A stretch of 64,000 bases of DNA from an uncultured Alphaproteobacteria bacterium (GTDB lineage Bacteria > Pseudomonadota > Alphaproteobacteria > Rhizobiales > Xanthobacteraceae): positions 48,670 to 112,669 of the forward strand of contig CAVXNW010000006.1 in NCBI GenBank assembly GCA_963763255.1. The letters run 5' to 3'. Below are positions 46,896 through 64,000 of the stretch, piece by piece. Positions within the stretch are counted from its first letter, which is position 1. Each line of letters starts with the position of its first letter. The position numbers and the translations under genes are program-made. Under the pieces are notes generated by a model that saw only the letters and a program-made list of their open reading frames with translations, was not told the DNA's origin and made no database searches.

Positions 46896-46930
46896 CTTGC
46901 TGACCGGGATATATCTTGCCGACCGGGATA
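46896..46930. promoter_or_regulatory. two direct copies of CTTGC(T/C)GACCGGGATA upstream of the RND operon
   Basis: Copies at 46896-46911 and 46915-46930 share the core CTGACCGG / CCGACCGG with the TetR-proximal repeats at 40198-40250. Confidence 0.35.
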
Positions 46931-47655: not shown

Positions 47656-47669
47656 TTGATCTGCGTCAA
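47656..47669. promoter_or_regulatory. FixK/FNR-type box TTGATCTGCGTCAA
   Basis: TTGA-N6-TCAA match, 156 bp (centre) upstream of the PhaC-like gene ATG. Confidence 0.55.
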
Positions 47670-47701
47670 ATCATGCCTGCGGCCGAAAGGGTGCGCGGTG
47701 A

Positions 47702-47715
47702 TTGATGCAGGTCAA
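47702..47715. promoter_or_regulatory. FixK/FNR-type box TTGATGCAGGTCAA
   Basis: TTGA-N6-TCAA match, 110 bp (centre) upstream of the PhaC-like gene ATG and 46 bp from the preceding box. Confidence 0.6.
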
Positions 47716-47818
47716 GGCAAACTGGTGCGCGCGGCATGACATTTCGTATCCAGTCCGACGATTGCAGGCTCTCCGGCAGGACGGCGACAAGCGTCGGCAA
47801 ACAACTCGCGCCATATTC

Positions 47819-48958: not shown

Positions 48959-48961
48959 GCC

Positions 48962-49789: not shown

Positions 49790-49992
49790 TTGCGTGAGTA
49801 TTATTTCCAGGGGGCGGTTCGATCTGCAGGCGTGATAATCTGTGAAATAGTCAGTCGATCCCCACCCGTGCAATGACGGCGAGCTTGATCGAACGCAACG
49901 CTAGCGCCGCGCTCGCGCGGCCTTCCTGAAACACGCCGGATCGTTGGTCGCGGTCGCTTCGGTGTGACAATTCATGACAAGGCGTGGCCGTC

Positions 49993-50006
49993 TTGATCTG
50001 CATCAA
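49993..50006. promoter_or_regulatory. FixK/FNR-type box TTGATCTGCATCAA (orphan, in a convergent intergenic gap)
   Basis: Perfect TTGAT-N4-ATCAA between the 3' ends of the usp and phaC genes. Confidence 0.5.
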
Positions 50007-50152
50007 TGCGACCGCCCCCGTGTCGATTATATGCGATCGGGGGGCGTTTCAACGCAATGGTCCTTGTAGAAGGAGCAACCAATGGCCACGCGTCGCGAAG
50101 TCGAAGGCGTGACGCCCCGGAAAGTAGTAACCGCGGAAAAGAGGTGTTCGCG

Positions 50153-52039
50153 TCACTGCATCAGCACATAGGTGCCCGGCGCCTCGGCAAGCGGGGGATA
50201 GCCAGCCTGGGCCGCACCCATCGGCGGGATGCCGGTGGGCGGCCCTGAGCGTTCGCTGAGCCAAGCGACCCATTCCGGCCACCACGACCCATCCTGGCGC
50301 CGCGCCTCGGCCAGATATCGCTCCGGATCAAGGTAGTGCTGGTTCGCTTGTTTGGTTCTGACGCGGAAATTGCGTCCAGGATGACCGAGCTCCGACACAA
50401 TGCCGGCATTGTGCCCGCCGCTGGTGAGCAGATAAGTCACATCGGTATCGAACTGAAGATTGATCTTATAGGTCGATCGCCAGGGCGCGACATGATCGCG
50501 CTCGGTACCAACGGCGAAGACCGGCACGCCAATGTCCTTGAGCGCGATCGGCCTGCCTCCCGCCATGCAACGGCCTTCCGCCAACTCGTTATCGAGGAAC
50601 AGCCGGCGCAGATATTCAGAGTGCATGCGATAGGGCATGCGAGTTGCATCCGCGTTCCAGGCCATCAGGTCGGTCATCGGTTCACGCTCACCGAGCAGAT
50701 AATCGTGCACCCCACGCGACCAGACGAGGTCGTTCGAGCGCAGCATTTCGAAGGCGCCGGCCATCTGACGACTGTCGAGGAAGCCTTGCTCCCACATCAT
50801 GTCTTCCAGAAACGCGACTTGGCTTTCGTCAGTGAAGAGCAGCAATTCGCCGGCCTCGGTGAAATCAGTCTGCGCCGCCAATAGTGTGAGCGTCGCGATC
50901 CGATCGTCGCGGTCGCGCGCCATCGCCGCCGCCGCGATCGAGAGCAGCGTGCCGCCGAGGCAATAGCCCACCGCATGCACTTTGCGGTCCGGCACGATCC
51001 GGCCGATAGCGCCAAGCGCGTCCATCACACCGAGCGACCGGTAATCGTCCATGCCGAGATCGCGATCGTCCGGCACGGGATTTTTCCAGGAAATCATGAA
51101 GACCGTGAAGCCTTGTTCGGTCAGGTACTTGACCAGCGAATTGTGCGGCGACAGGTCGAGAATGTAATATTTCATGATCCACGCGGGTACGATGAGGATC
51201 GGTTCCGGTCTCACTTCCCGCGTTACCGGTGCGTATTGGATCAGTTCGATCAGGCGATTGCGGAAAACCACCTTGCCGGGGGTTACCGCGACGTCGTGGC
51301 CGACCTTGAATTGCTCCGTGCCGACCGGCTTCTTGCCTCCAAAGGCGCGCTCGCAATCCGCAAAGACGTTCTGCGCGCCGCGCACAAGATTGGATCCGCC
51401 GGCGCTCATCGTGCGCCACAGAATTTCCGGATTGGTCAGCATAAAATTCGAGGGTGCGGCTACATCGAGAAGCTGTCGCGTGGCGAACTCGACCATGTCT
51501 TCGTGATGTTTTGATACGCCGCGCAAGCCGGTCGTGGCGTTATACCACCATTGCTGCTGCAACAGAAAACTCTGATAGATGAAGTTGAAGGGCCATTGCC
51601 GCCATTTTTCATCGCGGAAGCGGTGATCCTGCGGTAGCGGGTCGATGCAGGGTTCCGCATTCGGGCCCTCGACGGCGTACCGAAGAGCGTAATTCGCGAA
51701 GCGCAACGCTTTGCGGAACGCTTTGTCTGCTAGTTGCATACGTTTGCCCGGCGCGACGGCAAGATGCGTCGCCCAATCCCAGTAGGCTTGGGTGAGTGCG
51801 GCCGGTGACAAACCTCCGGTCATGCGTGCAATTGCGGCGTGGAGCGTGCGGTCGGTGACATCGGCGAGCGCAGTGACACTATAGGAATCGCGGTCGTCCG
51901 GTTCGACCGCCGGGCCGACGATCGCTGCCTCCGCGTCCGACCGTTCGGGGGCAATCGGAGCAACGGCCGAAATTTCGGCAGGTGCAATTGCGCTGTTCGT
52001 CATCGCTATTTGCCGCGGAAACCGCGCAGGCGCTGTCAT
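50153..52039 (-). CDS. phaC: class I poly(3-hydroxyalkanoate) synthase
   Basis: 628 aa with lipase-box GYCLGG and conserved blocks (WNADATRMP, ERDHVAP, GGHNAGIV). N-terminal domain typical of class I PhaC. Confidence 0.9.
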   Translation of the reverse strand: MTAPARFPRQIAMTNSAIAPAEISAVAPIAPERSDAEAAIVGPAVEPDDRDSYSVTALADVTDRTLHAAIARMTGGLSPAALTQAYWDWATHLAVAPGKRMQLADKAFRKALRFANYALRYAVEGPNAEPCIDPLPQDHRFRDEKWRQWPFNFIYQSFLLQQQWWYNATTGLRGVSKHHEDMVEFATRQLLDVAAPSNFMLTNPEILWRTMSAGGSNLVRGAQNVFADCERAFGGKKPVGTEQFKVGHDVAVTPGKVVFRNRLIELIQYAPVTREVRPEPILIVPAWIMKYYILDLSPHNSLVKYLTEQGFTVFMISWKNPVPDDRDLGMDDYRSLGVMDALGAIGRIVPDRKVHAVGYCLGGTLLSIAAAAMARDRDDRIATLTLLAAQTDFTEAGELLLFTDESQVAFLEDMMWEQGFLDSRQMAGAFEMLRSNDLVWSRGVHDYLLGEREPMTDLMAWNADATRMPYRMHSEYLRRLFLDNELAEGRCMAGGRPIALKDIGVPVFAVGTERDHVAPWRSTYKINLQFDTDVTYLLTSGGHNAGIVSELGHPGRNFRVRTKQANQHYLDPERYLAEARRQDGSWWPEWVAWLSERSGPPTGIPPMGAAQAGYPPLAEAPGTYVLMQ

Positions 52040-52217
52040 GGACTAACTCGGCATGATTACAAAGATACGACGTTTCGCGACGAACCTCCCCCCGTTTAAA
52101 AAAGCCCCGGCCAAAAATAAGGCCGGGGCCAAATGCTGGCATCCGATTCCCCTGGGAGGCCGGGAAATTGGACGCAATACCAGCACAGCAAGACTAGCCA
52201 ACCATGCGGGAATTGCT

Positions 52218-52231
52218 TTGATTTGCATCAA
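52218..52231. promoter_or_regulatory. FixK/FNR-type box TTGATTTGCATCAA upstream of phaC
   Basis: Perfect TTGAT-N4-ATCAA, 2 nt downstream of the CBS-BON stop codon and about 185 bp upstream of the phaC start. Confidence 0.6.
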
Positions 52232-52232
52232 T

Positions 52233-52982
52233 TCAATGAATCGCGCGTCCAGTCGAGTCCTCGGCTCTGGCTTCATCTTCCGCAGACGGAATGGCGATCC
52301 CAGACATCGGCTCGACCCAAACGAGGTGGTCGTGAACCTCTTTGACGCCTGCGACGTTCTCCGCCGCGACGATGAGCGCCTTGCGTTGACGCTCATCCGT
52401 GATGATGCCGGATAATTCCGCAGCGCCGTTGTGGACTGCCACGTTGACTTTCGGCGCCCAATTCACGTCGGCAAACGCCGCCAGGATCCGGTCGCGAATC
52501 GTCCCGTCATCGGCCGCGGGGCCGTGGGTATAGCGGGCGGTCTCGGTCAGGGCGTCCACGAGATTGGCGCGGCTGACAATTCCTACGATACGGCTATTGC
52601 GCAGCACCGGCAGCCGCTTGACGTGCCGGCGCTCCATCAGTTCGACCACGGTCTCCAGCGAGTTGTCCTCACTGACCGTAACGGGATCGGGCGTCATCAC
52701 TTCCTCGACCGTTCGGCCGGTCGTATGCACGTATTCAGCCGCAAGGCGCCCCGGCCCGAGCAAGAATTCAAGCCATCTAGGCCGCTGTCGTTGCGTTCCT
52801 ATTTCACCACGGCGCAGAAAATCGCCTTCGGTCACAATCCCGACCAGCGCGCCGGCGGCGTCCACTACCGGCAGACCGCTGACTTTATTCAGCAGCATCA
52901 GCTGTGCCGCATCGAGCACCGATTGATCGCCGCGAACCGAAATCACGTTGCGCGTCATCACATCGCGCACTTGCATCATCAT
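52233..52982 (-). CDS. CBS-pair plus BON domain protein
   Basis: 249 aa. Two CBS motifs (VRDVMTRNVISV.., VEEVMTPDPVTV..) are followed by a BON-like C-terminus (VAVHNGAAELSGII...AAENVAGVKEVHDHL). Confidence 0.85.
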   Translation of the reverse strand: MMMQVRDVMTRNVISVRGDQSVLDAAQLMLLNKVSGLPVVDAAGALVGIVTEGDFLRRGEIGTQRQRPRWLEFLLGPGRLAAEYVHTTGRTVEEVMTPDPVTVSEDNSLETVVELMERRHVKRLPVLRNSRIVGIVSRANLVDALTETARYTHGPAADDGTIRDRILAAFADVNWAPKVNVAVHNGAAELSGIITDERQRKALIVAAENVAGVKEVHDHLVWVEPMSGIAIPSAEDEARAEDSTGRAIH

Positions 52983-53010
52983 GTTTATTTCCTCCCCGAT
53001 CCAGCATTCC

Positions 53011-53721
53011 TCAGCTCACGATCCGATGCAGCGCCGCGCGGTTGCGGAGCACGATGTGCCGTGAGGTCGGCAGTCCGATCGCGGCGGAACATTCCAGAGC
53101 GGTGAGGGTCCGCGACACTGTCTCGATGGTCAGGCCAAGGTAGTCGGCAATATCCTGGCGCGACATCGGCAGCTCAACAGAATTGCCAGCAGACGTGCGA
53201 TCCGCCATTTCGAGCAGGAAGCCTGCCACCCTCTCCTGGGCGCTCTTGATGAGCAGCAGAATTCGGTCCTGCGCGCGGCGCAATTCGCGACCGGTCAGCG
53301 TGAAAAGCTCGCGGGCGATGGACGGGTCGCGCCCGGCAAGCGCATCGATCGCACTGCGCTTGATCACCAGCACCTTGCTGTCGGCGATCGCTTCCGCCGA
53401 TACGGTGTGCTCGTCATCGAAGCTCAAACCAAAGACTTCACCGGGGAGATAAAAGCCGCTGATCTGGCGGCGGCCGTCGTTCAGCGTCTTGTAAGTGCGC
53501 ACACAACCGCTCATCACCCTGTAGAGGTATTCGGACGGCTCCCCCTCACCGAAAATTTCGCTGTTGCGCGAATGCGACATGACAGCGCCCATCAGGTGCA
53601 TCGTCTGCGTCAGCGGCTGATCGGCGCTTTCAACGGCGCGGACGGATACCGGTGCAACGCGGCGGGCAGACTTCGGTGCGGGGTGAAAGGCGTTGGAGCG
53701 GACTGCGGTCTGGATGAGCAT
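53011..53721 (-). CDS. Crp/Fnr-family transcriptional regulator, FixK type (no N-terminal Cys cluster)
   Basis: cNMP-binding-like fold (LYRVMSGCVRTYKTLNDGRRQISGFYLPGEVFG). C-terminal HTH SRQDIADYLGLTIETVSRTLTALE carries the E--SR recognition motif that reads TTGAT half-sites. Confidence 0.9.
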   Translation of the reverse strand: MLIQTAVRSNAFHPAPKSARRVAPVSVRAVESADQPLTQTMHLMGAVMSHSRNSEIFGEGEPSEYLYRVMSGCVRTYKTLNDGRRQISGFYLPGEVFGLSFDDEHTVSAEAIADSKVLVIKRSAIDALAGRDPSIARELFTLTGRELRRAQDRILLLIKSAQERVAGFLLEMADRTSAGNSVELPMSRQDIADYLGLTIETVSRTLTALECSAAIGLPTSRHIVLRNRAALHRIVS

Positions 53722-53939
53722 GCGACGTGCCTCCGAGGGGTTTCGAAGGCATTGGTAGTCCGGTGCCTCAGGGTAAAAAATTCAGATGTTGCCCCTAAGT
53801 AATATCCCGGAGGCTCACTAAGGCAGCATCGACGCCTCACCGCCCATTCGAAAGAAGCCAGACCCGCAACACATTGTGGCATGCCAGCATTTTACAATTT
53901 CGCGCGAAAATTCACCGCCACGGATGGCGATGCTTCAGG

Positions 53940-53953
53940 TTGATTTTCGTCAA
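53940..53953. promoter_or_regulatory. FixK/FNR-type box TTGATTTTCGTCAA in the fixK-like / nitroreductase divergent region
   Basis: TTGA-N6-TCAA match centred about 81 bp upstream of the nitroreductase ATG (54028) and about 225 bp upstream of the fixK-like start. Confidence 0.6.
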
Positions 53954-54027
53954 TTCGCTTTCCCGGCCGACGGCTACGCTTAACGCTTTCCGCAATTTAG
54001 GCTCTCAGCACGCCGTTGGAGAAGGAC

Positions 54028-54591
54028 ATGGATCTAGGGGAAGCGATCTACTCGCGCCGCGCCACGCGCGATTTCACGGCGGAGCCGGTCGACGAAAAGT
54101 CAGTGCGCGCACTGATCGACGCGGCTGTGCAGGCGCCAAGCGCGGTCAATGTCCAGCCCTGGTCGTTTTGCGTTATTCGCGACAAAAGCCTGCTTGGCAG
54201 CATATCGCGCGAATCCAAAGCTTACATGGTCCGAAATTCGCCGATCGGGCTTGTCTCGCATCATTTCAGTGAGATCCTGAATGATGAAAGCTTCGATATC
54301 TTCTATCATGCGCCCGTCCTCATCGTGATTTGCAGTACGTCGGAAATCCCGTGGGCTGTTGAAGATTGCGCGCTGGCAGCGGAAAATCTCATGCTGGCGG
54401 CGCGAGCCGCGGGCCTTGGCAGCTGCTGGATCGGCTTCGCTCAAGGCTTTCTCGGCACGCCGGATGGCAAAGCGATGATGAAGGTCCCGGCGGCCTATAA
54501 GCCCATCGCCCCCATCATTGTCGGTCACCCGAAAGCCTGGCCTGCGCCTGTTCCGCGGAAGGAACCGGAAATCCGCTGGATCGATGCGTGA
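54028..54591 (+). CDS. nitroreductase family protein
   Basis: ATG at 54028 after GGAGAAGGA. MDLGEAIYSRRATRDFT.., APSAVNVQPW and AAENLMLAARA.GLGSCWIG blocks. Confidence 0.85.
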   Translation: MDLGEAIYSRRATRDFTAEPVDEKSVRALIDAAVQAPSAVNVQPWSFCVIRDKSLLGSISRESKAYMVRNSPIGLVSHHFSEILNDESFDIFYHAPVLIVICSTSEIPWAVEDCALAAENLMLAARAAGLGSCWIGFAQGFLGTPDGKAMMKVPAAYKPIAPIIVGHPKAWPAPVPRKEPEIRWIDA

Positions 54592-54626
54592 GCATTATGC
54601 GCGCGTTGAATTTTGCGGGCACAATC

Positions 54627-54640
54627 TTGACGAGGATCAA
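54627..54640. promoter_or_regulatory. FixK/FNR-type box TTGACGAGGATCAA
   Basis: TTGA-N6-TCAA match centred about 58 bp upstream of the host-attachment-family gene ATG. Confidence 0.6.
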
Positions 54641-54691
54641 GAAGTCCGCCGGTGAATTGTCTATTCTGACTGCGCATATTGGAGACACGAC

Positions 54692-55141
54692 ATGAACAAA
54701 ATCGCCATTCCTCATGACGCTCTGGTGTTCGTCGGTGACGGGCAAAAGGCGCTCTTCCTCCGCAATGCCGGAGACGAGAAATTTCCCAATCTGAAGATTG
54801 AGCGGGTGTTCAGCGAAAACAATCCGCCCACACGCGATCAAGGTACCGATCGCCCGGGTCGCACCATGGAGAGCGCCGGCACGCATCGCCACAGCAGCAT
54901 GGAGCCGACTGACTGGCACGAGATCGAGAAGGGACGTTTCGCCGATCGCGTGGCGGCCGAGCTGGAGAAGCTGGTGCGTGACCAAAACATGCGGAAGATC
55001 GTCGTGGTCGCACCGCCACGCACGCTTGCCGAGTTACGGCATGTATTTCACGCCGACGTCAAGAAACGCATCATCGCCGAGATCGATAAGGATTTGACCA
55101 GGCATCCGGTTTCGGAGATCGAGAAACACATCCTGGCGTGA
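54692..55141 (+). CDS. host attachment protein family (release-factor-like fold) protein
   Basis: 149 aa. Pattern ..ALVFVGDGQKALFLRN.. and ..FA..VA..L......IVVVAPPRTLAELR... as in Host_attach-family proteins (assignment from memory). Confidence 0.7.
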   Translation: MNKIAIPHDALVFVGDGQKALFLRNAGDEKFPNLKIERVFSENNPPTRDQGTDRPGRTMESAGTHRHSSMEPTDWHEIEKGRFADRVAAELEKLVRDQNMRKIVVVAPPRTLAELRHVFHADVKKRIIAEIDKDLTRHPVSEIEKHILA

Positions 55142-55171
55142 GTGAAGAACGCAAGCTGAGGGGGCATTTTC

Positions 55172-55381
55172 TTGCCGTACGCCAGCAATGAAAGCTTGCC
55201 GTCCTCGGTTCGCGCGCATCTGCCCGACCATGCGCAGGACATTTATCGGGAGGCCTTCAATCACGCTTGGGCTGCGCATGCCGGTGAGGGCCGTCAGGAA
55301 CAGGCCGCCCATCGCATCGCTTGGGCCGCGGTGAAGCGATCCTATGTCAAGCTCGGCAACGATTGGGTTGTGCGCGGCTAG
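55172..55381 (+). CDS. ChaB-family protein
   Basis: 69 aa with TTG start after GAGGGGG. MPYASNESLPSSVRAHLPDHAQDIYREAFNHAW...AHRIAWAAVKRSY is the ChaB signature. Confidence 0.75.
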   Translation: MPYASNESLPSSVRAHLPDHAQDIYREAFNHAWAAHAGEGRQEQAAHRIAWAAVKRSYVKLGNDWVVRG

Positions 55382-55414
55382 GATTTGCCCCTTCGCGAAC
55401 GCGAAACTATTCTC

Positions 55415-56443
55415 CTATCCCGCGGCCTTGACGATCGCTCGCCGCACCAACGCTTCAAACAGCGGTAGCTTGTAGGCATTCTTACTGAGCGGCGTGGCGC
55501 CATCGAGCGCCGCATGTGCGGCTCGGGCGGCGGTCGTCGGATCAATCCGCTGTCCGACCAGCGCAGCTTCGGCTTTCCTGGCCCGGTGCGGCACCGGCGC
55601 GGCCGCGCCGAGAACGATGGCGGCGCGCTGGCAAACGCCGCTCGTGTCAACGTCGATCAGAGCAGCGACATCGGCAAGGGGCCAATCGAACGAATCTTTT
55701 TCCCCCTGCTTGATGTGGGCCATGCGCACGCTCTGCGACAGTCGCGGCAGATGGATTGCGGTGAGAATCTCGTGCGGTTCGAGCCCATTCTCGCGTTGCA
55801 TATCCTGCTCGACGGGGACGAAGAAGTCTTCCAGCAAGAGGCGGCGCGCGCCCCCCGCCGTGCCGGTGATCTCGACCGTCGCGCCGATCGCGACCAGTGC
55901 GGTTGCCGCAGTCGAAGGATGCACGATGGCGCAGGGCATATTGTTGAAAATCGCGTGGTACTGGTTCTCGCCGTGGACGGCAAAGCAGTGACCGCCGCCC
56001 TTGCGCAGACAGCGAAACGCGTGCGAGCGCAGATACCAGCAGCGCGGCCGCTGCAGAAGGTTGCCGCCCAAGGTCGCGACGTTGCGGATCTGCGGACTTG
56101 CCGAGCTAGCAAGCGCGTCAGCGAGTGCGGGGTAGCGCTGCCGTAAGATCGGATGCGCGGAGAGCGATGCCAATGTGACCATAGACCCGATGCGCAGTCC
56201 GCCGTCCTCCTCTTCGCCAACGGTGTCAAGGGTCGGCACCTCGCGCAGGTTTATCAGCCTGGGCGGCGCCAGCAGGCCCTCTTTGATCAGATCAAGCAGA
56301 TCGATCCCGCCGGCTTTGATGACGGATACGTCGCTCTGACCTGCAAGCTCGGGCGGCACAGCCATGGCGTGGGCGACAGTCGCGGATGCCGCCGTGGCGG
56401 CTGCGGCAATCGTTCTTGGCGTGGCGAGGTCGAAGCGGTGCAT
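55415..56443 (-). CDS. xanthine dehydrogenase family FAD-binding (medium) subunit
   Basis: 342 aa with FAD_binding_5-like blocks (VIKAGGIDLLDLIKEG, IRNVATLGGNL). Confidence 0.85.
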   Translation of the reverse strand: MHRFDLATPRTIAAAATAASATVAHAMAVPPELAGQSDVSVIKAGGIDLLDLIKEGLLAPPRLINLREVPTLDTVGEEEDGGLRIGSMVTLASLSAHPILRQRYPALADALASSASPQIRNVATLGGNLLQRPRCWYLRSHAFRCLRKGGGHCFAVHGENQYHAIFNNMPCAIVHPSTAATALVAIGATVEITGTAGGARRLLLEDFFVPVEQDMQRENGLEPHEILTAIHLPRLSQSVRMAHIKQGEKDSFDWPLADVAALIDVDTSGVCQRAAIVLGAAAPVPHRARKAEAALVGQRIDPTTAARAAHAALDGATPLSKNAYKLPLFEALVRRAIVKAAG

Positions 56444-56448
56444 GGCCG

Positions 56449-58794
56449 TCAGCTCCTTCGCGCCACTTTGCCCAGCGCCGCAAGTACAGTCGCTGGAGTC
56501 ATCGGCAGGCTGCGCAGGCGCACGCCGATGGCATTATAGACGGCGTTGGCAATTGCCGGTGCGGTAGCGATATTGGCCGGCTCGGCGACGCCATAGGCAT
56601 CGGTCGCGCTTTGGCCTTGGTAATTCTCCAACACCACGACGTCGATCTGCGGCGTCTCACGCACGCCGGCGAGCTTGTATTGTTCCAGATCGGGATTGAC
56701 CATGCGCCCCGTCGCCTGATCAAGGATGCGCTCTTCAAGCAGCGCATAGGAAACGCCCATGAGCACGCCGCCCTGCACCTGACTTTCGATTTGCCTTGGA
56801 TTCATCGGCCGGCCGCAATCTTGCACGGCGACCACGCGCTCGACGCGGATAATGCCAGTCTCAGTATCAACCGCGACTTGCGCGAATTGCACGCCGCCCA
56901 AGTCCTGCTGCGCCAGCGCGGCGTCCGCTCCGGCGCGCCGTCGAAATCCCCCATAGTCGTCGCTGCGTGAAACAATCTCTGCGACACGATCAGTGCGCAA
57001 ATGACGGGCTGCATCCTTGAAGGTTACGAAGCGCGAGGGATCGCCGTGGACGAGGATTTTGCCTTCGCGCGCGATCAAATCGTCCGGGGAAGCATTCAGC
57101 AAAAGCGATGCCTCCCGGAAAAGCTGTCGCTGGACGCGCCACGCGGCAATACGCGCCGGCGGCGTGACCGACGCTGTGGTGCGGCTGCCATAAGACGGCC
57201 CGCCAGGCGGAAATTCGGTATCACCGATACGAACGGTGATCTGGTCGGGACGAAGACCAAATGCCTCGGCGACCGTCTGCGCCAAAACAGTCGTGATGCC
57301 CGTACCGATATCCTGCACGCTGGAGAGTACCTCCACCGAGCCGTCGCGCATCACCCGCACTTCGCAAGCGGCGTTGGTCTGGACATTGGCGCCCCAAAGC
57401 GATTGCGCGACACCGAGGCCGCGCCTGATCGGGCCAGCATCCGCACCGGGCCCGTGCCGGCGCGACCAGCCGATCCGTTCGGCGCCGATCCGCCGTTCCT
57501 CGCGCCGGACCGGGCTCGGGTCAATTCGGTCGCGCAATGCCAGCGGATCGATGGCAAGCCTTTCCGCCAGTTCGTCGACGGTCTGCTCCAAGCCAAATGC
57601 TCCGGGCGTATTTCCCGGCCCTCGCATCGCGCAGCCCGGCCCTGCATTGATGAAAACGTCATGCTGGGCGCCTTCGAAATTGGGACAAGAATAAAGCGCC
57701 TCGGCATTGTTGCCGACTCCTGCGCCGACCGTGATGCCAGCGGTACCGTAGCTCACGAGCGATATCGCGGTGAGCGAACCGTCGCGCTTGGCGCCAACGC
57801 GCAAGCGCTGCCAAGTGCCGGGCCGATTGCCGGCATCCATCTGCTCCTCCTCGCGCTCAAGGAAAAGGCGCACTGGCGCCTTGGCCTGGCGCGACAGCGC
57901 GATGGCAAAATGGCCGTAATTGCCGAGCGACGACTTTGAACCAAATCCGCCGCCCATCGCGTCGACGATGACCCGGACGCGGTTGAGCGGCAAATCGAAT
58001 ACCTCGGCGATTTCGTCGCGAACACCCGCAGTAAACTGCGTCGACATGTAAACGGTGAGCCCGTCGGCTCGCCAATCAGCAACGATCGCGTGCGGCTCAA
58101 TGCAGCAATGGGTGTGGACGCTCGTGCTGTACTCGCCTTCGACGACCACGTCGGATTCGCCAAACCCCTTGGTCGGATCCCCGCGCCTCGCGATTGAAGG
58201 GCCGCGAACATTGCCATTGAGCGGCAGGTTCACCGCCGCCGGAAAGCCCGAAGGGTGTCCCGGAGGCGATGTCGCATGATCGTGAACCAAAGGGGCGGTA
58301 GACTCGCGCGCCTTGTCCATGTCGGCGACGAACGGCAGCGACTCATAGTCGACGCGAATAAGGCGCAACGCCTCTTCGGCGGCCGGCAGCGAAATAGCTG
58401 CCACGGCGACGACAGGCGCGCCGACATAGCGCAATTTTGCGCTTCTCGGATCAGCGGGATCGGCCACCGTCAGAACCGCACGCACGCCGGGATGACGGAC
58501 AGCCGCCGAGACATCGATTGAGCGCACAACGGCATGAGGGAGAGGCGAGCGTAACACGCGTCCGTGCAGCATGCCCGGAAGCGAAATGTCGACAGTGAAG
58601 CGGACGGCACCAGTGACTTTGGCGCGGCCGTTGGGCCGCGGAAAGGACTTGCCGATGACGCTAAGCTCGCTGTTCGGCGGCAGTGGCGGCGGCTCATCGG
58701 CCGGAATCTGACGCTCGACCGTGCCTAAGCCGACGCTGGCGATGCCGAAGGGAAAGCTTGCTGCCCGCAGCATTTCTGGCTTCGCCACGTTCAT
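56449..58794 (-). CDS. xanthine dehydrogenase / aldehyde oxidoreductase family molybdopterin-binding large subunit
   Basis: Start ATG at 58794 overlaps the upstream stop (ATGA). Blocks GRAKVTGAVRFTVD, GGGFGSK and AYGVAEPA. Confidence 0.9.
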   Translation of the reverse strand: MNVAKPEMLRAASFPFGIASVGLGTVERQIPADEPPPLPPNSELSVIGKSFPRPNGRAKVTGAVRFTVDISLPGMLHGRVLRSPLPHAVVRSIDVSAAVRHPGVRAVLTVADPADPRSAKLRYVGAPVVAVAAISLPAAEEALRLIRVDYESLPFVADMDKARESTAPLVHDHATSPPGHPSGFPAAVNLPLNGNVRGPSIARRGDPTKGFGESDVVVEGEYSTSVHTHCCIEPHAIVADWRADGLTVYMSTQFTAGVRDEIAEVFDLPLNRVRVIVDAMGGGFGSKSSLGNYGHFAIALSRQAKAPVRLFLEREEEQMDAGNRPGTWQRLRVGAKRDGSLTAISLVSYGTAGITVGAGVGNNAEALYSCPNFEGAQHDVFINAGPGCAMRGPGNTPGAFGLEQTVDELAERLAIDPLALRDRIDPSPVRREERRIGAERIGWSRRHGPGADAGPIRRGLGVAQSLWGANVQTNAACEVRVMRDGSVEVLSSVQDIGTGITTVLAQTVAEAFGLRPDQITVRIGDTEFPPGGPSYGSRTTASVTPPARIAAWRVQRQLFREASLLLNASPDDLIAREGKILVHGDPSRFVTFKDAARHLRTDRVAEIVSRSDDYGGFRRRAGADAALAQQDLGGVQFAQVAVDTETGIIRVERVVAVQDCGRPMNPRQIESQVQGGVLMGVSYALLEERILDQATGRMVNPDLEQYKLAGVRETPQIDVVVLENYQGQSATDAYGVAEPANIATAPAIANAVYNAIGVRLRSLPMTPATVLAALGKVARRS

Positions 58795-59399
58795 CCCCCA
58801 TGCGCTCTGGCCGCCGCGAGCGTTGCGGCGATGACATGCGGATAAGTGCCGCAACGGCAATAATGCCCGCTGATCGCGGCACGGACCTCGTCGGCGTTCG
58901 GTTCCGGGTTACGCTTCAACAAGGCCGCACAGCTCATGATCATGCCGGGCGTGCAAAATCCACATTGCAGCGCATCGTGATCGATGAAAGCTTGCTGCAC
59001 TGGATGCAGTGTTTCACCCTGCGCGAGGCCTTCGATCGTCGTAACCTCTCGTGTGCCGACATCAACGGCGAGCATCATGCAGGCGCAGATCGGCAGGCCA
59101 TCAAGCCATACGGTACAGGCCGAGCATGCGCCGCGATTGCAGGCGATCTTGGTGCCAGTCAGCCCCAATGGCCCACGCAACACTTCAGCTAGTGTTGCGC
59201 TCGCTGCGACATGCGCCGCCCGCAGCACGCCATTAACATTCAAATGAATGGTATCCGGCTGCGCACCTGCCGACGGCGCGTCGCCTGCACTGATTTCCGC
59301 TTGTGCCGTCATCGTTTGCGCTGTGTTGATCACGGTCGCTCCGGCGGTCGACACCGCGGAGCCGCGAAGAAACGACCGGCGCGACAGGTCACTCACCAC
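58791..59399 (-). CDS. [2Fe-2S]-binding small subunit with twin-arginine (Tat) signal, PaoA-like
   Basis: Probable GTG start near 59399 after GGAG gives (M)VSDLSRRSFLRGSAVSTAGA. Two 2Fe-2S motifs are present: CNRGACSACTV...C and CGFCTPGM...C.C. Confidence 0.8.
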   Translation of the reverse strand: MVSDLSRRSFLRGSAVSTAGATVINTAQTMTAQAEISAGDAPSAGAQPDTIHLNVNGVLRAAHVAASATLAEVLRGPLGLTGTKIACNRGACSACTVWLDGLPICACMMLAVDVGTREVTTIEGLAQGETLHPVQQAFIDHDALQCGFCTPGMIMSCAALLKRNPEPNADEVRAAISGHYCRCGTYPHVIAATLAAARAHGG

Positions 59400-59459
59400 G
59401 TCTCGCTCCGCCACACTTGTCGCCGCCAAAACAACTATGCGCCCGTCGCTTCGCTGGCC

Positions 59460-59473
59460 TTGATCTAGGTCAA
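59460..59473. promoter_or_regulatory. FixK/FNR-type box TTGATCTAGGTCAA upstream of the PaoABC-like operon
   Basis: TTGA-N6-TCAA match centred about 67 bp upstream of the putative GTG start of the Tat-signal Fe-S subunit. Confidence 0.55.
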
Positions 59474-59849
59474 GCCAGCCGAGGCGAAACGTCGAATGTC
59501 TTCCGGGCGATCCGATCTTCTGACATTGGATCAAAGCGGGCGGCCACCGCCGCCAGCATAAGAATTGCGGCCGCTTATGGAGGTGAGCGAATGCACGTTC
59601 CGTTGTCTCTGCGATCAAGCAAAGCGCCCAGGCCCGCGATTGTGCGCCGCGCAACAAAAACCCGTCGCAATGTGACGGACAAGCAACAAGCTGAGCTCCG
59701 CCGCCACATCGCGGGGAATCGACGGCCGTTTGATCTTCGTCAAAGCATGCTCTCCCTCAACACGAAAGACTGCAATCAGCCGGGCTTGGGTCTCGGAGTT
59801 GCGCATGCATGGTCCATTCGGAGAAATGCCAACGCAAAGGAGGGAAACG

Positions 59850-60002
59850 ATGCGCGCGCTCGCGTGGAATGGAAATGGCCTCACGACGAAGCTCCTTTGG
59901 GGCGCGATCGCTCTCCTTGGCGCAGTTTCGCTGGCCATCGTTGCACTCAGCCGCGGCGAAGCGGTCAATGCTGCATGGCTGGTCATAGCATCGGTGTGCA
60001 TC
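59850..60002 (+). pseudogene. cstA: carbon starvation protein CstA remnant: first ~51 codons with intact RBS
   Basis: AAGGAGGGA RBS then [51 protein letters not shown]. This matches the conserved CstA N-terminus (..ALNRGE.INA.W.V.ASVCIY..). Similarity stops abruptly at 60002. Confidence 0.7.
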
Positions 60003-60004
60003 TC

Positions 60005-60115
60005 GGCGCCGGCAATGACGACGCCGGCGAGAATCCACAGCGTACCGGGCAGGTAGCCCATTTGCGCGGCCAGCACCGGACCAACCAGCGGTCCCGCACC
60101 TGCTTGCCCAGCAAT
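60005..60115 (-). pseudogene. cstA: inverted internal fragment of cstA (conserved [33 protein letters not shown] block)
   Basis: The minus-strand translation [37 protein letters not shown] is a hallmark CstA block. In intact genes it lies downstream of the N-terminal block on the same strand. Here it is inverted and abuts it. Confidence 0.7.
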
Positions 60116-60189
60116 TCAAAGATCCGGCGACGCTTGCGACCTAGGCGGCGCTGCGACGGTGCACTTTCCGCTTGCGACGGAAGAAAATC

Positions 60190-61197
60190 ATGGATTTGAC
60201 GACACGCTACCTGGGTCTTGAACTTAAAAATCCTATCGTAGCTTCGGCTTCGCCGCTCACCGGCAATCTCGACGCTATCCGCAGTCTGGAGGACGCCGGA
60301 GCCGCCGCCGTCGTACTGCCCTCGCTATTCGAGGAACGGATCGAGGCGGAAGCGCGCGCGCACGAGATTCTTACCGCGACGGGCCTGAAAAATACCCCCG
60401 AAGCCCACGGCTGTACGGCCGATTCTGAGGGACCCGCGCCTGAAGAATACCTCAACCTCATCAGACGAGCCGTTGCCGCCGTCGACATTCCCGTCATTGC
60501 CAGCCTCAACGGCACAACAGACGAAGGCTGGACAGGCTACGCCGAGCTGATCGAGCAAGCCGGAGCGGCAGCGCTCGAACTCAATGTCTATTTGATTCCG
60601 ACCGATTTGTCTTTGACCGGGGGCGAGGTCGAAGAGATTCATCTTGAAATTCTGCGCCAGGTCCGGCGCACGGTCGCACTGCCACTTGCGATCAAACTTA
60701 GCCCGTATTTCAGCGCGATCGGGCAGATCGCTGCGCAATTAGCTACCGCGGGAGCGGATGCTTTGGTGCTGTTCAACCGTTTCTATCAACCGGACATTGA
60801 TTTGACGCAGCTTCGGCTTCGCAATGATTTGCAGTTGAGCCACTCGAACGAAATCGGACTGCCGCTCTTGTGGATCGGCCTCCTGTCCGGGCGCGTCGAA
60901 GCCTCGCTTGCCGCAAGCACCGGCGTTGAGGATTCCGAGCAGGTAATAAAATACCTGCTGGCCGGGGCCGATGCCGTGATGACCACGGCAGCTTTGCTGC
61001 GGCACGGTCCGCGACACATAGAGAAACTTTTGAATGAAACGATGTCGTGGCTGTCAGCACGTGATATTTCGTCACTCGATGAGATTCGCGGATTGCTCAG
61101 CCAGCGCCGCTTCGCCAATCCCGACTCCTTCGGCCGAGCAAGCTATGTAAAGATCTTACGCGATTACGCCGCTCATTATCAGCGCGGAGCTGCGTAG
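60190..61197 (+). CDS. dihydroorotate dehydrogenase-like (class 1 DHOD/DPD TIM-barrel fold) protein lacking the canonical catalytic Cys/Ser motif
   Basis: Start ATG at 60190 (MDLTTRYLGLELKNPIVASASPLT). FMN-barrel blocks are present (IASLNG, LELNV, IKLSP, LFNR, GADAVM). The usual ELN-x-S-C-P-N segment reads ELNVYLIP. Confidence 0.8.
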   Translation: MDLTTRYLGLELKNPIVASASPLTGNLDAIRSLEDAGAAAVVLPSLFEERIEAEARAHEILTATGLKNTPEAHGCTADSEGPAPEEYLNLIRRAVAAVDIPVIASLNGTTDEGWTGYAELIEQAGAAALELNVYLIPTDLSLTGGEVEEIHLEILRQVRRTVALPLAIKLSPYFSAIGQIAAQLATAGADALVLFNRFYQPDIDLTQLRLRNDLQLSHSNEIGLPLLWIGLLSGRVEASLAASTGVEDSEQVIKYLLAGADAVMTTAALLRHGPRHIEKLLNETMSWLSARDISSLDEIRGLLSQRRFANPDSFGRASYVKILRDYAAHYQRGAA

Positions 61198-61283
61198 CCT
61201 GGCTGGTGAACCCGCAGACCTACAGCGATCCGTGTGGACAGTCAGTTGGTCGCGGTCCTGGCGGTAAAATAGGAGGCATGAGA

Positions 61284-61658
61284 ATGCAACGATCCTGGCT
61301 TCTGACGCTTGCAGTGTTGGGCGGCCTCGCTGCAGGCCTCCTGACCCACGCCACGGCGCAAACGCCGTCAGCGGCGCCGGGTGCCGGGCATGGTTTTCTC
61401 ATCGATAAGCATGCGGCGGCCGGGCTCAATTGCGCCGCATGCCACTCCGAAACTCCCCCATCAAAGCAGCCGGATCAAGCGGTGTGTGTCAAGTGTCACG
61501 GCACCAACGCGCAGGTTGCTACTAAGACTGCATCCGACCAGCCCAATCCCCATGCGTCGCATCTCGGCGAAGTTGCGTGCACAAGCTGCCATCACATCCA
61601 TCAGGCTTCGGTGCTTTATTGCACGCAGTGCCATAATTTCGATTTGAAGACTCCCTGA
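61284..61658 (+). CDS. periplasmic tetrahaem cytochrome c (small, cytochrome c3 / flavocytochrome N-domain-like)
   Basis: AGGAGG RBS and Sec signal MQRSWLLTLAVLGGLAAGLLTHATA. Four CxxCH motifs: CAACH, CVKCH, CTSCH, CTQCH. Confidence 0.85.
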   Translation: MQRSWLLTLAVLGGLAAGLLTHATAQTPSAAPGAGHGFLIDKHAAAGLNCAACHSETPPSKQPDQAVCVKCHGTNAQVATKTASDQPNPHASHLGEVACTSCHHIHQASVLYCTQCHNFDLKTP

Positions 61659-61735
61659 AGCATTATCGACCGCGCTGTCATCTAGTGAGAAATTCGCGGC
61701 CATCCCTGGATGACAAGTGCTTTTGATCGACCCGA

Positions 61736-63505
61736 TTAACCGGCACCGCCATCACTCGCGGCATTCTTGCCGGCGATATAGCCCTGACAGGCGGCGCGGG
61801 CGAGGCCATGCTGCGAGAATCCGCCGGCAGATTCGCCACTACAATACAGGCCAGGGATCGCGTCGGCGTTCATATCCATGACCTGGCACTTGCCGTTGAT
61901 GCGCAGTCCGGCGCGCGTGTCGTGCACGACCGGCGTTGCCCAGGCGGCATAGAACGGCGCCTTCGCGATCTTGTGCAGCGGCTTCGGCTTGCCGAAATCC
62001 TCATCGACACCAGAGTCGACGAATGAATTATAGCGCGCCACGGTTTGTTCGAGATTTTCGGACGGCATTGAGACGCGTTGATATTTCATTTTGATTTTCC
62101 CGGCGAGATCACCGAGCGAATTTGCCGAAAAAAAGAAGCCAGCCTCGGTGTCGACGTTCGGAGGGTCCGGATCCCACTTTTCCCGCGTGACCGCGTCGGC
62201 GTCGAAGACTGCCCAGATCGGACCGCCGCCATTGTGGCCGTCTCCGATTCCGGCCAGCGCCGCGTTGATGAAGTTGTTGGGATTGTATTTCTGATTCCTG
62301 GCGTTGAGGTAGCTGCCCTGCTTGTAATCCTTGATCGAGTTGTAATCGTTTGCGGTGAACTGCGGACCGGTCTCGTCATAGAAGCGCTTTCCGATCATGT
62401 TGACGAGAATGACGTCCTGCCAATTGGCGACCGACAGACCCGAGGCGCGCGCCTTGTCGAAAACGGGGCTGCCCGGCATCCACTTCAAATTGACGTAACC
62501 GTACTGGCCGCCGATCGTCCCAGCCTTGGTGAGGTTGGAACCGAATTCGCCGGTCTGATTGTAAAGCCCCCACAGTGAAGCGCCGATCGCCATGCCGGCA
62601 AGTTCACCGCTGGCGTCCTGGTTGGACCACGGCATGCCCGACAAGCCGCAATATTCCTCCGTCAGCCGCGGATCGAACATGCGACGGAAGTTGATGTTTC
62701 CAGTCGAACCGCCGGTCGCGATAATGACGGCCTTGTGGGCGCGGATGTTCAGCGTTTGACCGTCATTTTGCACCGCGATGCCGGTAACGCGCCCGGAAGC
62801 CGGCTGGTCGCGATAGATCGAGGTCATCTTATGTTCGAGCAGAATCTGCACGCCTGCCTTCCTGGCAGCGGCCTCCAGCGGGCGCATCAGCCCATTGCCC
62901 GAAGAGAGGGTCTTCTGAATCATCGGATCGGCCGGCTTGCCGGTCTGCACCATCGGCCAGTTCATGACAGCGCTGTGCACCTCTCGCGGCGCGGAATTGC
63001 CGACCGATGTGCCGCCAAACTGGTCCGGTGTCTTATCGACAAAAACGACACCATGGGCGAGCAGCCATTCAAACGTTGGCGCGCTGTTGTCGGCGAAAGC
63101 GCGAATGATCTCGCGGTCGTTATATCGGTAGTCAGGGAAGCCGTTACCTTCCACCACTGACCAGTCGGTCAAATCGCGGAACAGCAGATCCGGCGAGTCG
63201 TTGATGCCATATTTCTTCTGTACGCTGGTTCCGCCGCCGAGCGGGACATTGCCGCCACTGGTGATGGCGTGACCGCCGATATCCTTTTCGGCTTCGACCA
63301 GAATGACCGTCGCGCCGGCTTCGTGTGCCACGATAGCGGCCGGCAGGCCTGCAGCACCCGAACCGATCACAACGATATCGGCCTCGCGCTGCCACTCTGT
63401 GGGCGTGCGTGGCGCCTGCGCTAAAGCCCTATCGGGCGCTCTGACGGCAAGGCCAGCTGCGATTCCACCGCCGCTGAGCAAAAAGTCACGCCTTTTCAGG
63501 GTCAT
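61736..63505 (-). CDS. Tat-exported FAD-dependent oxidoreductase (fumarate reductase / flavocytochrome c flavin-subunit-like, FAD_binding_2)
   Basis: Start ATG at 63505 gives twin-arginine leader MTLKRRDFLLSGGGIAAGLAVRAPDRALAQA. Dinucleotide fold DIVVIGSGAAGLPAA is present and the C-terminal block is GLYCSGESAGG. No CxxCH in this protein. Confidence 0.85.
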   Translation of the reverse strand: MTLKRRDFLLSGGGIAAGLAVRAPDRALAQAPRTPTEWQREADIVVIGSGAAGLPAAIVAHEAGATVILVEAEKDIGGHAITSGGNVPLGGGTSVQKKYGINDSPDLLFRDLTDWSVVEGNGFPDYRYNDREIIRAFADNSAPTFEWLLAHGVVFVDKTPDQFGGTSVGNSAPREVHSAVMNWPMVQTGKPADPMIQKTLSSGNGLMRPLEAAARKAGVQILLEHKMTSIYRDQPASGRVTGIAVQNDGQTLNIRAHKAVIIATGGSTGNINFRRMFDPRLTEEYCGLSGMPWSNQDASGELAGMAIGASLWGLYNQTGEFGSNLTKAGTIGGQYGYVNLKWMPGSPVFDKARASGLSVANWQDVILVNMIGKRFYDETGPQFTANDYNSIKDYKQGSYLNARNQKYNPNNFINAALAGIGDGHNGGGPIWAVFDADAVTREKWDPDPPNVDTEAGFFFSANSLGDLAGKIKMKYQRVSMPSENLEQTVARYNSFVDSGVDEDFGKPKPLHKIAKAPFYAAWATPVVHDTRAGLRINGKCQVMDMNADAIPGLYCSGESAGGFSQHGLARAACQGYIAGKNAASDGGAG

Positions 63506-63596
63506 ATGGCTCTCCCTTCGGCTACGCTGGCGACGCGAGAGGCGCGCCTGATGGCCTTCGGAAGCGCGTAGTGTGCCGGGCATCAGGTGGGCGGCA

Positions 63597-63610
63597 TTGA
63601 CGAAGATCAA
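63597..63610. promoter_or_regulatory. FixK/FNR-type box TTGACGAAGATCAA in the divergent flavoprotein / NapC-like promoter region
   Basis: TTGA-N6-TCAA match centred about 98 bp from the flavoprotein ATG (minus strand) and about 85 bp from the NapC-like ATG (plus strand). Confidence 0.6.
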
Positions 63611-63688
63611 TCTGGAGTCTGTCCGCTTACCCTATGAAGGTTGCGGAGCGCCGCGGGTGTCAGCCTTGCCATGTCTGGGAGATTTCGG

Positions 63689-64000
63689 ATGCGACGATGG
63701 CTTGTGATTTGCTCGCTACTCATTATCGGAGCAGCGGTTGGCGCTGGGGGGATCGTCGCCAGCACCTTCGTTAATCAGATTACGTCCACGGAGGCGTTTT
63801 GTACGTCCTGCCATTCGATGGCGAATGTGGCTGCCGATCCACACTACTTGCAGTCCGCGCATCGAAATAACGCTGCCGGAGTTCTGGCCAGCTGCGCTGA
63901 CTGCCACGTCCCCTCGAACAATTGGTTCGTCGAAACCTATTCGCACGTCGTTGACGGAATTCGCGACGAGATTGCCGAGCACACCAGCAAATTCAATGAT
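63689..64000 (+). CDS. NapC/NirT/CymA-family membrane-anchored multihaem cytochrome c quinol dehydrogenase (N-terminal 104 codons; continues beyond window)
   Basis: My translation is MRRWLVICSLLIIGAAVGAGGIVASTFVNQITSTEAFCTSCHSM...SCADCHVPSNNWFVETYSHVVDGIRD. It has an N-terminal TM anchor, the first two CxxCH motifs and the family-typical spacing. Confidence 0.85.
   Translation, partial: MRRWLVICSLLIIGAAVGAGGIVASTFVNQITSTEAFCTSCHSMANVAADPHYLQSAHRNNAAGVLASCADCHVPSNNWFVETYSHVVDGIRDEIAEHTSKFND

Follow-up and report, generated by a model that had tools for sequence, protein, structure and literature searches.

Three genes at the right end of a 64,000-nt stretch of DNA from an uncultured Alphaproteobacteria bacterium of the Xanthobacteraceae (assembly GCA_963763255.1, contig CAVXNW010000006.1, positions 48,670-112,669 of the forward strand; hereafter the window) are understood here, with somewhat more confidence than doubt, as encoding a periplasmic electron-transfer module under FixK/FNR control. 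The proposed module combines a flavin adenine dinucleotide (FAD) flavoprotein exported by the twin-arginine translocation (Tat) system, a soluble tetrahaem cytochrome c and a membrane cytochrome of the NapC type, and it is of the same type as the split systems FccABC, ArdAB and Mrd/Mcc. The evidence carrying it comprises the gene identities and export signals, the homology of the haem subunit, the conservation of the flavoprotein-cytochrome pair and of the promoter box, and the independent genomic context of a fourth gene, for a dihydroorotate dehydrogenase (DHOD)-like protein, that adjoins the module in the window. The original prediction for this DNA had placed all four gene products in one electron-transfer chain. 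Its four open reading frames (ORFs) and their motifs were all found in place, and its split periplasmic flavocytochrome under a FixK/FNR box is borne out by the relationship of the cytochrome to the haem domain of Fcc3, by the conserved pair and by the occurrence of the box in cytochrome-linked promoters.

The haem subunit, the flavoprotein and the FixK/FNR box

The identity of the cytochrome is the best single argument that flavoprotein and cytochrome are the two halves of one flavocytochrome. This Sec-exported, soluble protein of 124 residues, encoded at 61284-61658 on the plus strand with an AGGAGG ribosome-binding site 7 nt ahead of the ATG at 61284, carries four CxxCH motifs and matches PF14537 with 69 bits. 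A phmmer comparison with all PDB sequences gave Shewanella Fcc3 (1qjd and others) as the best matches (E=1.5e-14), residues 49-124 aligning to Fcc3 13-93 with all four CxxCH motifs and the NxHASH ligands retained. The alignment covers the whole mature length of the cytochrome and stops exactly at the end of the Fcc3 haem domain; judged by its sequence, the protein is a detached Fcc3 haem domain. The flavoprotein gene (61736-63505, minus strand) is convergent with that of the cytochrome across a 77-nt spacer and encodes 589 residues with a FAD_binding_2 match of 168 bits. Its product begins with a 30-residue signal that contains the twin-arginine motif KRRDFLL and ends in ALAQA, and not a single CxxCH occurs in the whole sequence.

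Conservation of this arrangement was assessed in 83 flavoprotein loci, comprising the 80 best genomic loci (of at least 584 places) and three fetched earlier, by scoring neighbour genes with tblastn in neighbourhoods of about 10 kb; two further loci, L088 and L089, were retrieved starting from the DHOD-like protein and lie outside this survey. The tetrahaem cytochrome adjoins the flavoprotein in 13 of the 83 related loci, and the pair is kept across the whole window clade, where flavoprotein identities range from 76 to 92%. This clade, delimited in a neighbour-joining tree, unites the window with L004, L005, L001, L006, L007, L002, L003/L009 and L012, all with Tat signal and tetrahaem cytochrome; L010 and L011 also fall within it, but their cytochrome is of the monohaem type. 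A further cytochrome-linked clade (L019, L023 and L049), as well as L013, is placed elsewhere in the tree, with Tat-less clades interspersed.

Of the third component, a membrane tetrahaem cytochrome of the NapC/NirT/CymA family, the window holds the first 104 of about 182 codons (63689-64000, plus strand; PF03264, 78 bits against a cut-off of 24). They encode an N-terminal transmembrane helix and two of the four CxxCH motifs, CTSCH and CADCH. The gene runs on past the end of the window; look-ups by exact sequence, of the flavoprotein and of a DHOD-like protein 100% identical to that of the window, gave no contig, and the 3' remainder was inferred from the relatives L088 and L089. The L088 orthologue, 91% identical over the window part, has 182 residues, four CxxCH motifs and an end-to-end NapC/NirT match; it stays below the NCBIfam equivalog cut-offs for NapC, TorC and NrfH and is therefore regarded as a divergent member of the family. 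A napC gene lies near the flavoprotein gene in 7 of the 83 loci, and it stands beside the pair in the window, L001, L003, L004, L006, L007, L009, L088 and L089.

Flavoprotein and napC genes diverge from a 183-nt spacer that holds a FixK/FNR-type box, TTGACGAAGATCAA (63597-63610), centred about 98 nt before the start codon of the flavoprotein gene and about 85 nt before that of napC. The window has 11 occurrences of the pattern TTGA-N6-TCAA where 0.63 would be expected (17-fold), a number that no shuffle reached, at 15625, 30095, 47656, 47702, 49993, 52218, 53940, 54627, 59460, 59730 and 63597. Among the relatives, it is found 95-180 nt upstream of the flavoprotein start in 10 of 77 homologues (L001-L007, L009, L012 and L023), all in cytochrome-linked clades, and is absent upstream of the other 67 with enough upstream sequence. 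The half-sites of orthologous boxes are conserved and their spacer is variable; the boxes of L088 and L089 are identical to that of the window. This confinement of the box to the cytochrome-linked clades supports, at the level of sequence, a control of the module by low oxygen.

Based on these elements, the module may be pictured as follows. Under oxygen limitation, a FixK-type activator at 63597-63610 would switch on the flavoprotein gene and the napC gene that diverges from it, and the cytochrome gene would probably be transcribed, together with the orphaned DHOD-like gene, from a promoter at the box at 59730. The NapC-family protein in the inner membrane would draw electrons from quinol, and the soluble tetrahaem cytochrome would carry them from there to the flavoprotein. 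The exported FAD enzyme would then reduce a periplasmic organic acceptor held by His528 and Arg570. We infer the sequence of carriers as well as the reductive direction and the class of substrate, and the direction is weighed in the section that follows.

The surroundings of the module in related loci offer further observations. In one clade member (L003/L009; L003 2362-12237), a NiFe hydrogenase cluster immediately precedes the flavoprotein-cytochrome pair. Its structural genes are interleaved as small subunit, a 228-aa ORF without Pfam match, a Fer4/CCG protein and large subunit, and genes for a NapC-family cytochrome and a UbiA-family prenyltransferase come after the cluster; the layout hints at hydrogen as an electron donor for the module. 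UbiA-family genes are also near the module in L001 and L004. Past napC (L001 1-9234, L004 840-9264, L088 12082-15940) there follow a conserved membrane protein of 118-122 residues and a MacB-type ABC exporter with a HlyD-like adaptor, and further genes there encode proteins of the UbiA family and of DUF3306, a monohaem cytochrome of the PSCyt1 type, a large Fe-S protein and a chaperone like NarJ/TorD. The end of the window is probably followed closely by another set of respiratory genes.

Active site, fold and direction of electron flow

From its sequence, the flavoprotein belongs to the superfamily of flavocytochrome c flavin domains and ketosteroid dehydrogenases (KstD), within an uncharacterised subfamily that has an invariant HDTR motif. 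It scores 203 bits against TIGR01813 (flavo_cyto_c), under the cut-off of 285, and reaches no equivalog or subfamily cut-off of NCBIfam. The closest PDB sequences are UrdA and Fcc3, at about 1e-34 only, followed by ketosteroid dehydrogenases, and a family profile lifts the matches to all three to between 1e-52 and 1e-58. The anchor motif (I/V)LVNxxGKRFxxE is common to the flavoprotein and Fcc3. For comparison of folds, a first AlphaFold model built from 71 sequences of 76-91% identity was discarded (predicted local distance difference test, pLDDT, 43.9), and a second AlphaFold2 model, from an alignment extending down to 49% identity, reached a pLDDT of 72.9 and a predicted template-modelling (TM) score of 0.76, its insertions being of low confidence. 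Foldseek with this second model ranked Fcc3 and UrdA at the top by E-value (about 1e-31, TM 0.45-0.56). The expected kinship to UrdA and Fcc3, for which the original prediction had advised profile and structure searches, is thus recovered by sequence and by fold E-value, with KstD-type enzymes scoring about equally by fold.

Active-site columns were read in an alignment of 84 flavoprotein homologues, and the arginine and histidine residues that the original prediction had singled out for inspection proved to be kept in part. The equivalents of Fcc3 His504 and Arg545, His528 and Arg570, are invariant in all 84, the histidine within H-D-T-R (H-H-T-M in Fcc3) and the arginine within HGLAR (HGANR in Fcc3). 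The alignment of His528 is firm; that of Arg570 depends on HGxxR as paired with Fcc3 in the pairwise alignment and is less certain, because the profile alignment put Fcc3 Arg545 in an insert. What did not hold is the proton donor of Fcc3, Arg402, located four residues past the GKRFxNE motif, which aligns to Gln382. The stretch bearing Fcc3 His365, Thr377, Glu378 and Arg381 is about 23 residues longer in the flavoprotein and was left unaligned by HMMER; a manual alignment alone sets Glu320, Leu, Ser and Asn at these four positions, where the model is of low confidence. A further insertion of about 40 residues occupies positions 384-425, in the capping domain.

A reductive, quinol-fed module has several of these and other observations to contend with. 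At the Arg402-equivalent column, the residues of the 84 homologues include Gln (62), His (8), Gly (5) and Ala (5), and no conserved arginine is found near it; by extension of the manual alignment, Thr377, Glu378, Arg381 and probably His365 are not conserved either. KstD and cyclohexanone dehydrogenase (CDH) come close behind Fcc3 and UrdA in Foldseek (about 1e-27) and have the higher TM scores (0.55-0.57). About half of the close homologues (67-79% identical) have neither a signal peptide nor an NADH-oxidising partner, and such lone signal-less proteins are typical of dehydrogenases, not of reductases. No napC gene was found by tblastn within 10 kb in L002, L005, L012 or L013. Xanthobacteraceae normally contain ubiquinone only, a quinone whose potential would be too high for a NapC-type quinol dehydrogenase to power reductions of the fumarate kind.

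Several of these points count towards the strongest alternative, an electron flow in reverse, to which we assign a real but clearly smaller likelihood. A periplasmic KstD/CDH-type dehydrogenase or desaturase would here pass electrons to the tetrahaem cytochrome, and from there to the NapC-type protein acting as quinone reductase, or to a high-affinity oxidase or denitrification enzymes, in analogy to the hydroxylamine oxidoreductase, cytochrome c554 and cM552 of nitrifiers. NapC/NirT proteins can run in reverse, cM552 being an example. Besides the missing Arg402, the ubiquinone-only thermodynamics would favour the oxidative direction, KstD and CDH folds match about as well as Fcc3, and the N-terminal FAD domain has its top profile score, 149 bits, with delta4-(5alpha)-ketosteroid dehydrogenase (4at0). 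The Tat-less homologues stand alone with catabolic neighbours (Rieske/LigXa oxygenases, UbiD, amidohydrolases, aldehyde dehydrogenases and enzymes of the xanthine dehydrogenase (XDH) family). A CDH gene adjoins the genes of a three-subunit 3-hydroxycyclohexanone dehydrogenase (PMC10966990), and the window has a three-subunit XDH-family enzyme as neighbour. The active site, however, speaks against KstD and CDH in one respect. These enzymes use a Tyr-Tyr-Tyr-Gly set (Y119, Y318, Y487 and G491 in KstD1; Y195, Y376, Y570 and G574 in CDH), and His528 occupies the position of the carbonyl-binding Y487 of KstD and of CDH Y570, as the histidine does in Fcc3, so that the tyrosine is not present there; the Arg545 equivalent is likewise invariant. 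Moreover, the haem subunit is specifically of the Fcc3 type, and all characterised systems of the split architecture are reductases (PMC4427408; bioRxiv 10.1101/2024.02.11.579808). Induction by oxygen limitation fits an alternative acceptor better than a donor, without proving an acceptor. The fold, as modelled, does not discriminate between reductase and desaturase.

For the quinol-fed module that we prefer, loss of Arg402 lowers the claim of a fumarate reductase and still allows a reductase, possibly one for an unsaturated acid. The retained anchor of the His528/Arg570 type, together with Gln in place of Arg402, suggests an acceptor that is carboxylate-bearing and unsaturated and probably other than fumarate. 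A precedent exists in those gut flavin reductase clades that lack the canonical arginines and still reduce enoates (cinnamates) (bioRxiv 10.1101/2022.12.26.521950). Literature searches returned nothing on the flavoprotein's subfamily, nor on any FixK-regulated flavocytochrome.

The distribution of the family places the exported module in a broader frame. Homologues number 5572 proteins at E<=1e-10 among the scored candidates and 505 clusters (50% identity) at E<=1e-30, and species-representative genomes hold the family in at least 584 places. The best 80 loci, 67-90% identical to the window protein and nearly all from soil, peat or bog assemblies, belong to Xanthobacteraceae, Stellaceae, Acetobacteraceae, Vulcanimicrobiota, Acidobacteria, Opitutaceae, Syntrophorhabdales/Syntrophobacterales and an Actinomadura isolate, this identity range spanning Alphaproteobacteria, Eremiobacterota, Acidobacteriota, Actinomycetota, Verrucomicrobiota and Desulfobacterota. 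Among cultured bacteria, Acidisphaera sp. S103 and Actinomadura sp. DC4 have homologues without an associated cytochrome. The signal peptide is wholly missing in 38 homologues, about half, whose ORF begins just before the dinucleotide-binding motif. Genes for c-type cytochromes with four, three or one haem adjoin about 18 of the 45 Tat-bearing homologues and none of the 38 Tat-less ones, within 6 kb of which no ORF with a CxxCH motif was found. Up to three copies occur per genome (L007, L020 and L065 in the JASHOR01 metagenome-assembled genome; L009 and L070 in OY969771); the interspersion of Tat-bearing and Tat-less forms, both at 67-79% identity, the multiple copies and the spread over several phyla point to frequent horizontal transfer, with repeated gain and loss of export. 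The cytochromes outside the tetrahaem type comprise a monohaem protein of about 187 residues downstream of the Tat-bearing homologue in L010 and L011 and trihaem proteins of 136-158 residues directly downstream in L030, L046 and L050, all on the same strand. Separated from the flavoprotein gene by 19-116 nt and unrelated to the tetrahaem type of the window, they look like independent recruitments of haem partners. On this sequence evidence, the flavoenzyme would seem to work in either compartment, and its exported versions to have been coupled to c-type cytochromes several times.

The same survey bears on a second alternative, which we regard as improbable: that there is no dedicated module, the flavoprotein being a self-sufficient periplasmic enzyme (an oxidase or a generic user of cytochromes) and the cytochrome and napC genes mere neighbours in a FixK island. 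It draws on the diversity of the neighbourhood, with 164 Pfam families among 142 immediate neighbours of the family, on the more than half of Tat-bearing homologues that lack a nearby cytochrome gene, and on the variable presence of napC. Yet three types of cytochrome were recruited beside Tat-bearing members and never beside Tat-less ones, the window cytochrome corresponds to the very haem domain that in Fcc3 forms one polypeptide with the flavin domain, and pair, box and napC are conserved together across the clade of 76-92% flavoprotein identity.

Indications of the substrate were sought among the same neighbours. A conserved partner other than a cytochrome was considered and dismissed, the commonest neighbour, HbpS/GlcG-like, accounting for only 7 of the 142, the same number as the cytochrome. 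The plasmid collection holds one distant homologue (Salipiger, 44% identity) beside a tripartite tricarboxylate transporter, a suggestive hint at a carboxylate substrate that is not decisive. Neighbouring genes for Pao-like aldehyde oxidoreductase, UbiD and LigXa-type oxygenase hint at aromatic or phenylpropanoid acids. None of these associations is frequent enough to settle on. Genes of the XDH family recur near about 10 of the 83 flavoprotein homologues.

The DHOD-like gene, a deleted operon and the FixK-box-rich region

The gene ahead of the cytochrome, at 60190-61197 on the plus strand, encodes a DHOD-like flavin mononucleotide (FMN) protein of 335 residues (Pfam DHO_dh). It matches the NCBIfam entry PRK07565, 'dihydroorotate dehydrogenase-like protein', with 421.9 bits against a cut-off of 303, over residues 1-330 of the 335. 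The original prediction was right, as far as alignment can tell, that the catalytic base is lost: the segment ELNVYLIP (residues 130-137; 60577-60600) aligns to ELNISCPN of class 1B DHOD, with Leu in place of the catalytic Cys in the ELN-x-SCPN loop. The form ELNxY[LF]IPT is conserved in 27 PRK07565 members (66-100% identity), which keep the FMN-site Lys and the phosphate-binding motifs, and loss of the catalytic Cys is family-wide in PRK07565.

A chain of four members, with the cytoplasmic DHOD-like protein as the fourth, is by contrast very improbable, even though the DHOD-like and cytochrome genes are co-directional, 86 nt apart and probably co-transcribed, and are adjacent in the same way in L004, L005, L088 and L089. 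Only two of the 83 flavoprotein loci, L004 and L005, have the DHOD-like gene nearby by tblastn; L088 and L089, where it is also found, complete the innermost sub-lineage to which its adjacency to the module is restricted. It is not beside the module in the sister locus L001, in L002, L003, L006, L007, L009, L012 or L013, or in any of the other relatives. The co-occurrence expected of all four genes therefore holds for the flavoprotein-cytochrome pair, throughout the window clade, and fails for the DHOD-like gene. A survey of the DHOD-like family itself, in 80 metagenome loci, detected the cytochrome and the flavoprotein in none. In the 54 of these with more than 600 nt of upstream sequence, a NifJ-type pyruvate:ferredoxin oxidoreductase (PFOR) gene ends at most 400 nt upstream on the same strand in 47, and a GltD/PreT/NfnB-like gene precedes PFOR in 14 of 29 DHOD-like loci. 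Lacking a signal peptide, the DHOD-like protein is therefore assigned to the cytoplasm, a compartment other than that of the module.

How the gene came to lie beside the cytochrome is suggested by the closest relatives. The operon of this lineage (L005, L088, L089) runs cstA, ybdD, E1 alpha, E1 beta, E2, a 90-aa ORF, CMD and the DHOD-like gene, which closes it and is followed by the cytochrome gene; it is intact in L005 (12324-19012) and L088 (3984-9008). The window retains a scrambled remnant of cstA, for a pyruvate/peptide transporter, at 59850-60115, detected by tblastn of L005 CstA at 88% and 92% identity. Codons 1-51 lie at 59850-60002 on the plus strand and codons 100-136 are inverted at 60115-60005 on the minus strand, and colinearity with L005 and L088 restarts at 60189. 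Judged from these comparisons, the remnant marks where about 6.5 kb with cstA, ybdD, E1 alpha, E1 beta, E2 and CMD were lost by deletion. Compared with the sister L001, the whole of 59412-61271 is inserted next to the cytochrome gene, on the side of the Pao-like operon, so as to part the two. The DHOD-like gene stands outside the chain, as the orphaned last gene of a deleted cstA/2-oxoacid dehydrogenase operon.

The genes E1 alpha, E1 beta and E2 replace PFOR in the lineage of the window, and no E3 gene was called in the 17 kb of L088. The recurring context suggests that PRK07565 is an uncharacterised electron-transfer partner of 2-oxoacid oxidation. Literature searches returned only passing mentions of PRK07565, one of them noting that PFOR of Propionibacterium is flanked by glutamate-synthase-like and DHOD-like genes (PMC7650540). 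The window protein is a full-length, Cys-less member of the family; unlike the members that flank PFOR elsewhere, its gene is without PFOR and, after the deletion, without the E1/E2 genes as well. A 1180-aa ORF (35378-38920, plus strand) was considered as a PFOR partner and rejected. Only an aminotransferase domain is found in it, in its last third, and the long 5' extension is probably not real coding sequence.

A second FixK/FNR-type box, TTGATCTTCGTCAA (59730-59743), lies 107 nt upstream of the cstA remnant, and L005 has a box at 19125 upstream of its intact cstA. With the operon deleted, no candidate promoter element lies nearer to the DHOD-like gene and the cytochrome gene than TTGATCTTCGTCAA. 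A promoter and terminator scan of 59300-64000 gave nothing above shuffle level.

Nine of the 11 boxes of the window fall in its last 16 kb (47.6-63.6 kb), mostly at promoter distance from genes, and this right-hand part of the window resembles a FixK-regulon island. The genes in question comprise those for PhaC, a polyhydroxybutyrate-depolymerase-like hydrolase, a nitroreductase, a host-attachment protein, a Pao-like molybdoenzyme and a Crp/FNR-family regulator (53011-53721, minus strand); Usp and a CBS protein are also encoded in this stretch. The G+C content is 59-61% in 40001-56000 and 60001-64000 and 62-65% in the first 40 kb of the window; at third codon positions, G+C falls from about 0.8-0.88 to about 0.65-0.77 in the low-G+C part. 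The box-rich region may have been acquired separately. The molybdoenzyme, a three-subunit enzyme of the XDH family (55415-59423, minus strand), consists of a FAD_binding_5 subunit, a molybdenum subunit and a 2Fe-2S subunit, and the twin-arginine signal SRRSFLRG on the last of these therefore marks it as a periplasmic, PaoABC-like aldehyde oxidoreductase. The box at 59460 is just upstream of its genes, and in L001 the PaoABC-like genes directly adjoin the cytochrome gene. A second XDH-family molybdopterin subunit is encoded at 33026-35353 on the plus strand.

Relation to known systems and significance

Separate polypeptides for haem and flavin, a feature whose novelty the original prediction overstated, are an architecture already known from Wolinella FccABC, Geobacter Mrd/Mcc and Shewanella ArdAB. 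FccC is a NapC/NirT-type cytochrome. The FccABC system of Wolinella succinogenes thus comprises the same three parts as the window: a Tat-exported, haem-free flavoprotein, a Sec-exported tetrahaem cytochrome and a NapC/NirT-type cytochrome. Signal types and haem counts of FccA and FccB are tabulated in PMC4427408. The host here is alphaproteobacterial and not epsilonproteobacterial, however, the genes are convergent and divergent instead of forming one operon, and they have a FixK box. The flavoprotein, set beside FccA by description and not by sequence, is of a different subfamily without the catalytic arginine.

ArdAB of Shewanella woodyi and Mrd/Mcc of Geobacter sulfurreducens AM-1 likewise pair a Tat-exported flavoprotein with a Sec-exported multihaem cytochrome, and deletion of the ArdB gene showed the cytochrome to be required for the activity of the acrylate reductase ArdAB. 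Similar to the window flavoprotein, ArdA keeps a carboxylate set of the His504/Arg545 type and has the second set replaced; it differs in keeping the proton-transfer arginine where the window flavoprotein has Gln. Unlike in the window, no napC is described beside ardAB or beside mrd-mcc, which encodes a methacrylate reductase, and the window flavoprotein is about 60-120 residues longer than the ArdA/Mrd type, with its insertion at 384-425.

The fumarate reductase Fcc3/FccA and the urocanate reductase UrdA of Shewanella, the best matches by sequence and fold, work with a CymA-type partner analogous to the NapC-type protein here, whereas the haem and flavin parts are separate polypeptides in the window and the identity of the flavin part is only about 22-25%. 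HDTR in place of HHTM and the absent Arg402 further set the flavoprotein apart from Fcc3. KstD, delta4-5alpha-KstD and CDH share with it the two-domain FAD fold, at comparable Foldseek scores and with an FAD domain strongly like 4at0; unlike the window flavoprotein, they are not known to be served by a tetrahaem cytochrome of their own. What is new, then, is the combination of an alphaproteobacterial soil host, conserved FixK control and a widespread, uncharacterised subfamily that has a non-canonical active site and occurs in both compartments.

Lastly, the analysis has importance for the view of respiration in soil. Removing the DHOD-like gene from the chain prevents a wrong four-gene model and directs attention to PFOR, the nearly obligate partner of that gene. 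Tentatively, the flavoprotein may stand for a new enzyme family and, in the window clade, for a hitherto unrecognised way of respiring at low oxygen in soil and peat Alphaproteobacteria, by reduction or oxidation of an abundant plant- or humus-derived compound. Periplasmic flavocytochrome respiration is known chiefly from Shewanella, Wolinella, Geobacter and gut bacteria, and a FixK-controlled version in soil Xanthobacteraceae would extend respiration with organic acceptors to the microoxic soils and peat in which Xanthobacteraceae abound. Such a version would also highlight a highly conserved and widespread enzyme family. The cytoplasmic and periplasmic forms of the family represent a natural experiment in how a soluble flavoenzyme becomes wired to a respiratory chain.

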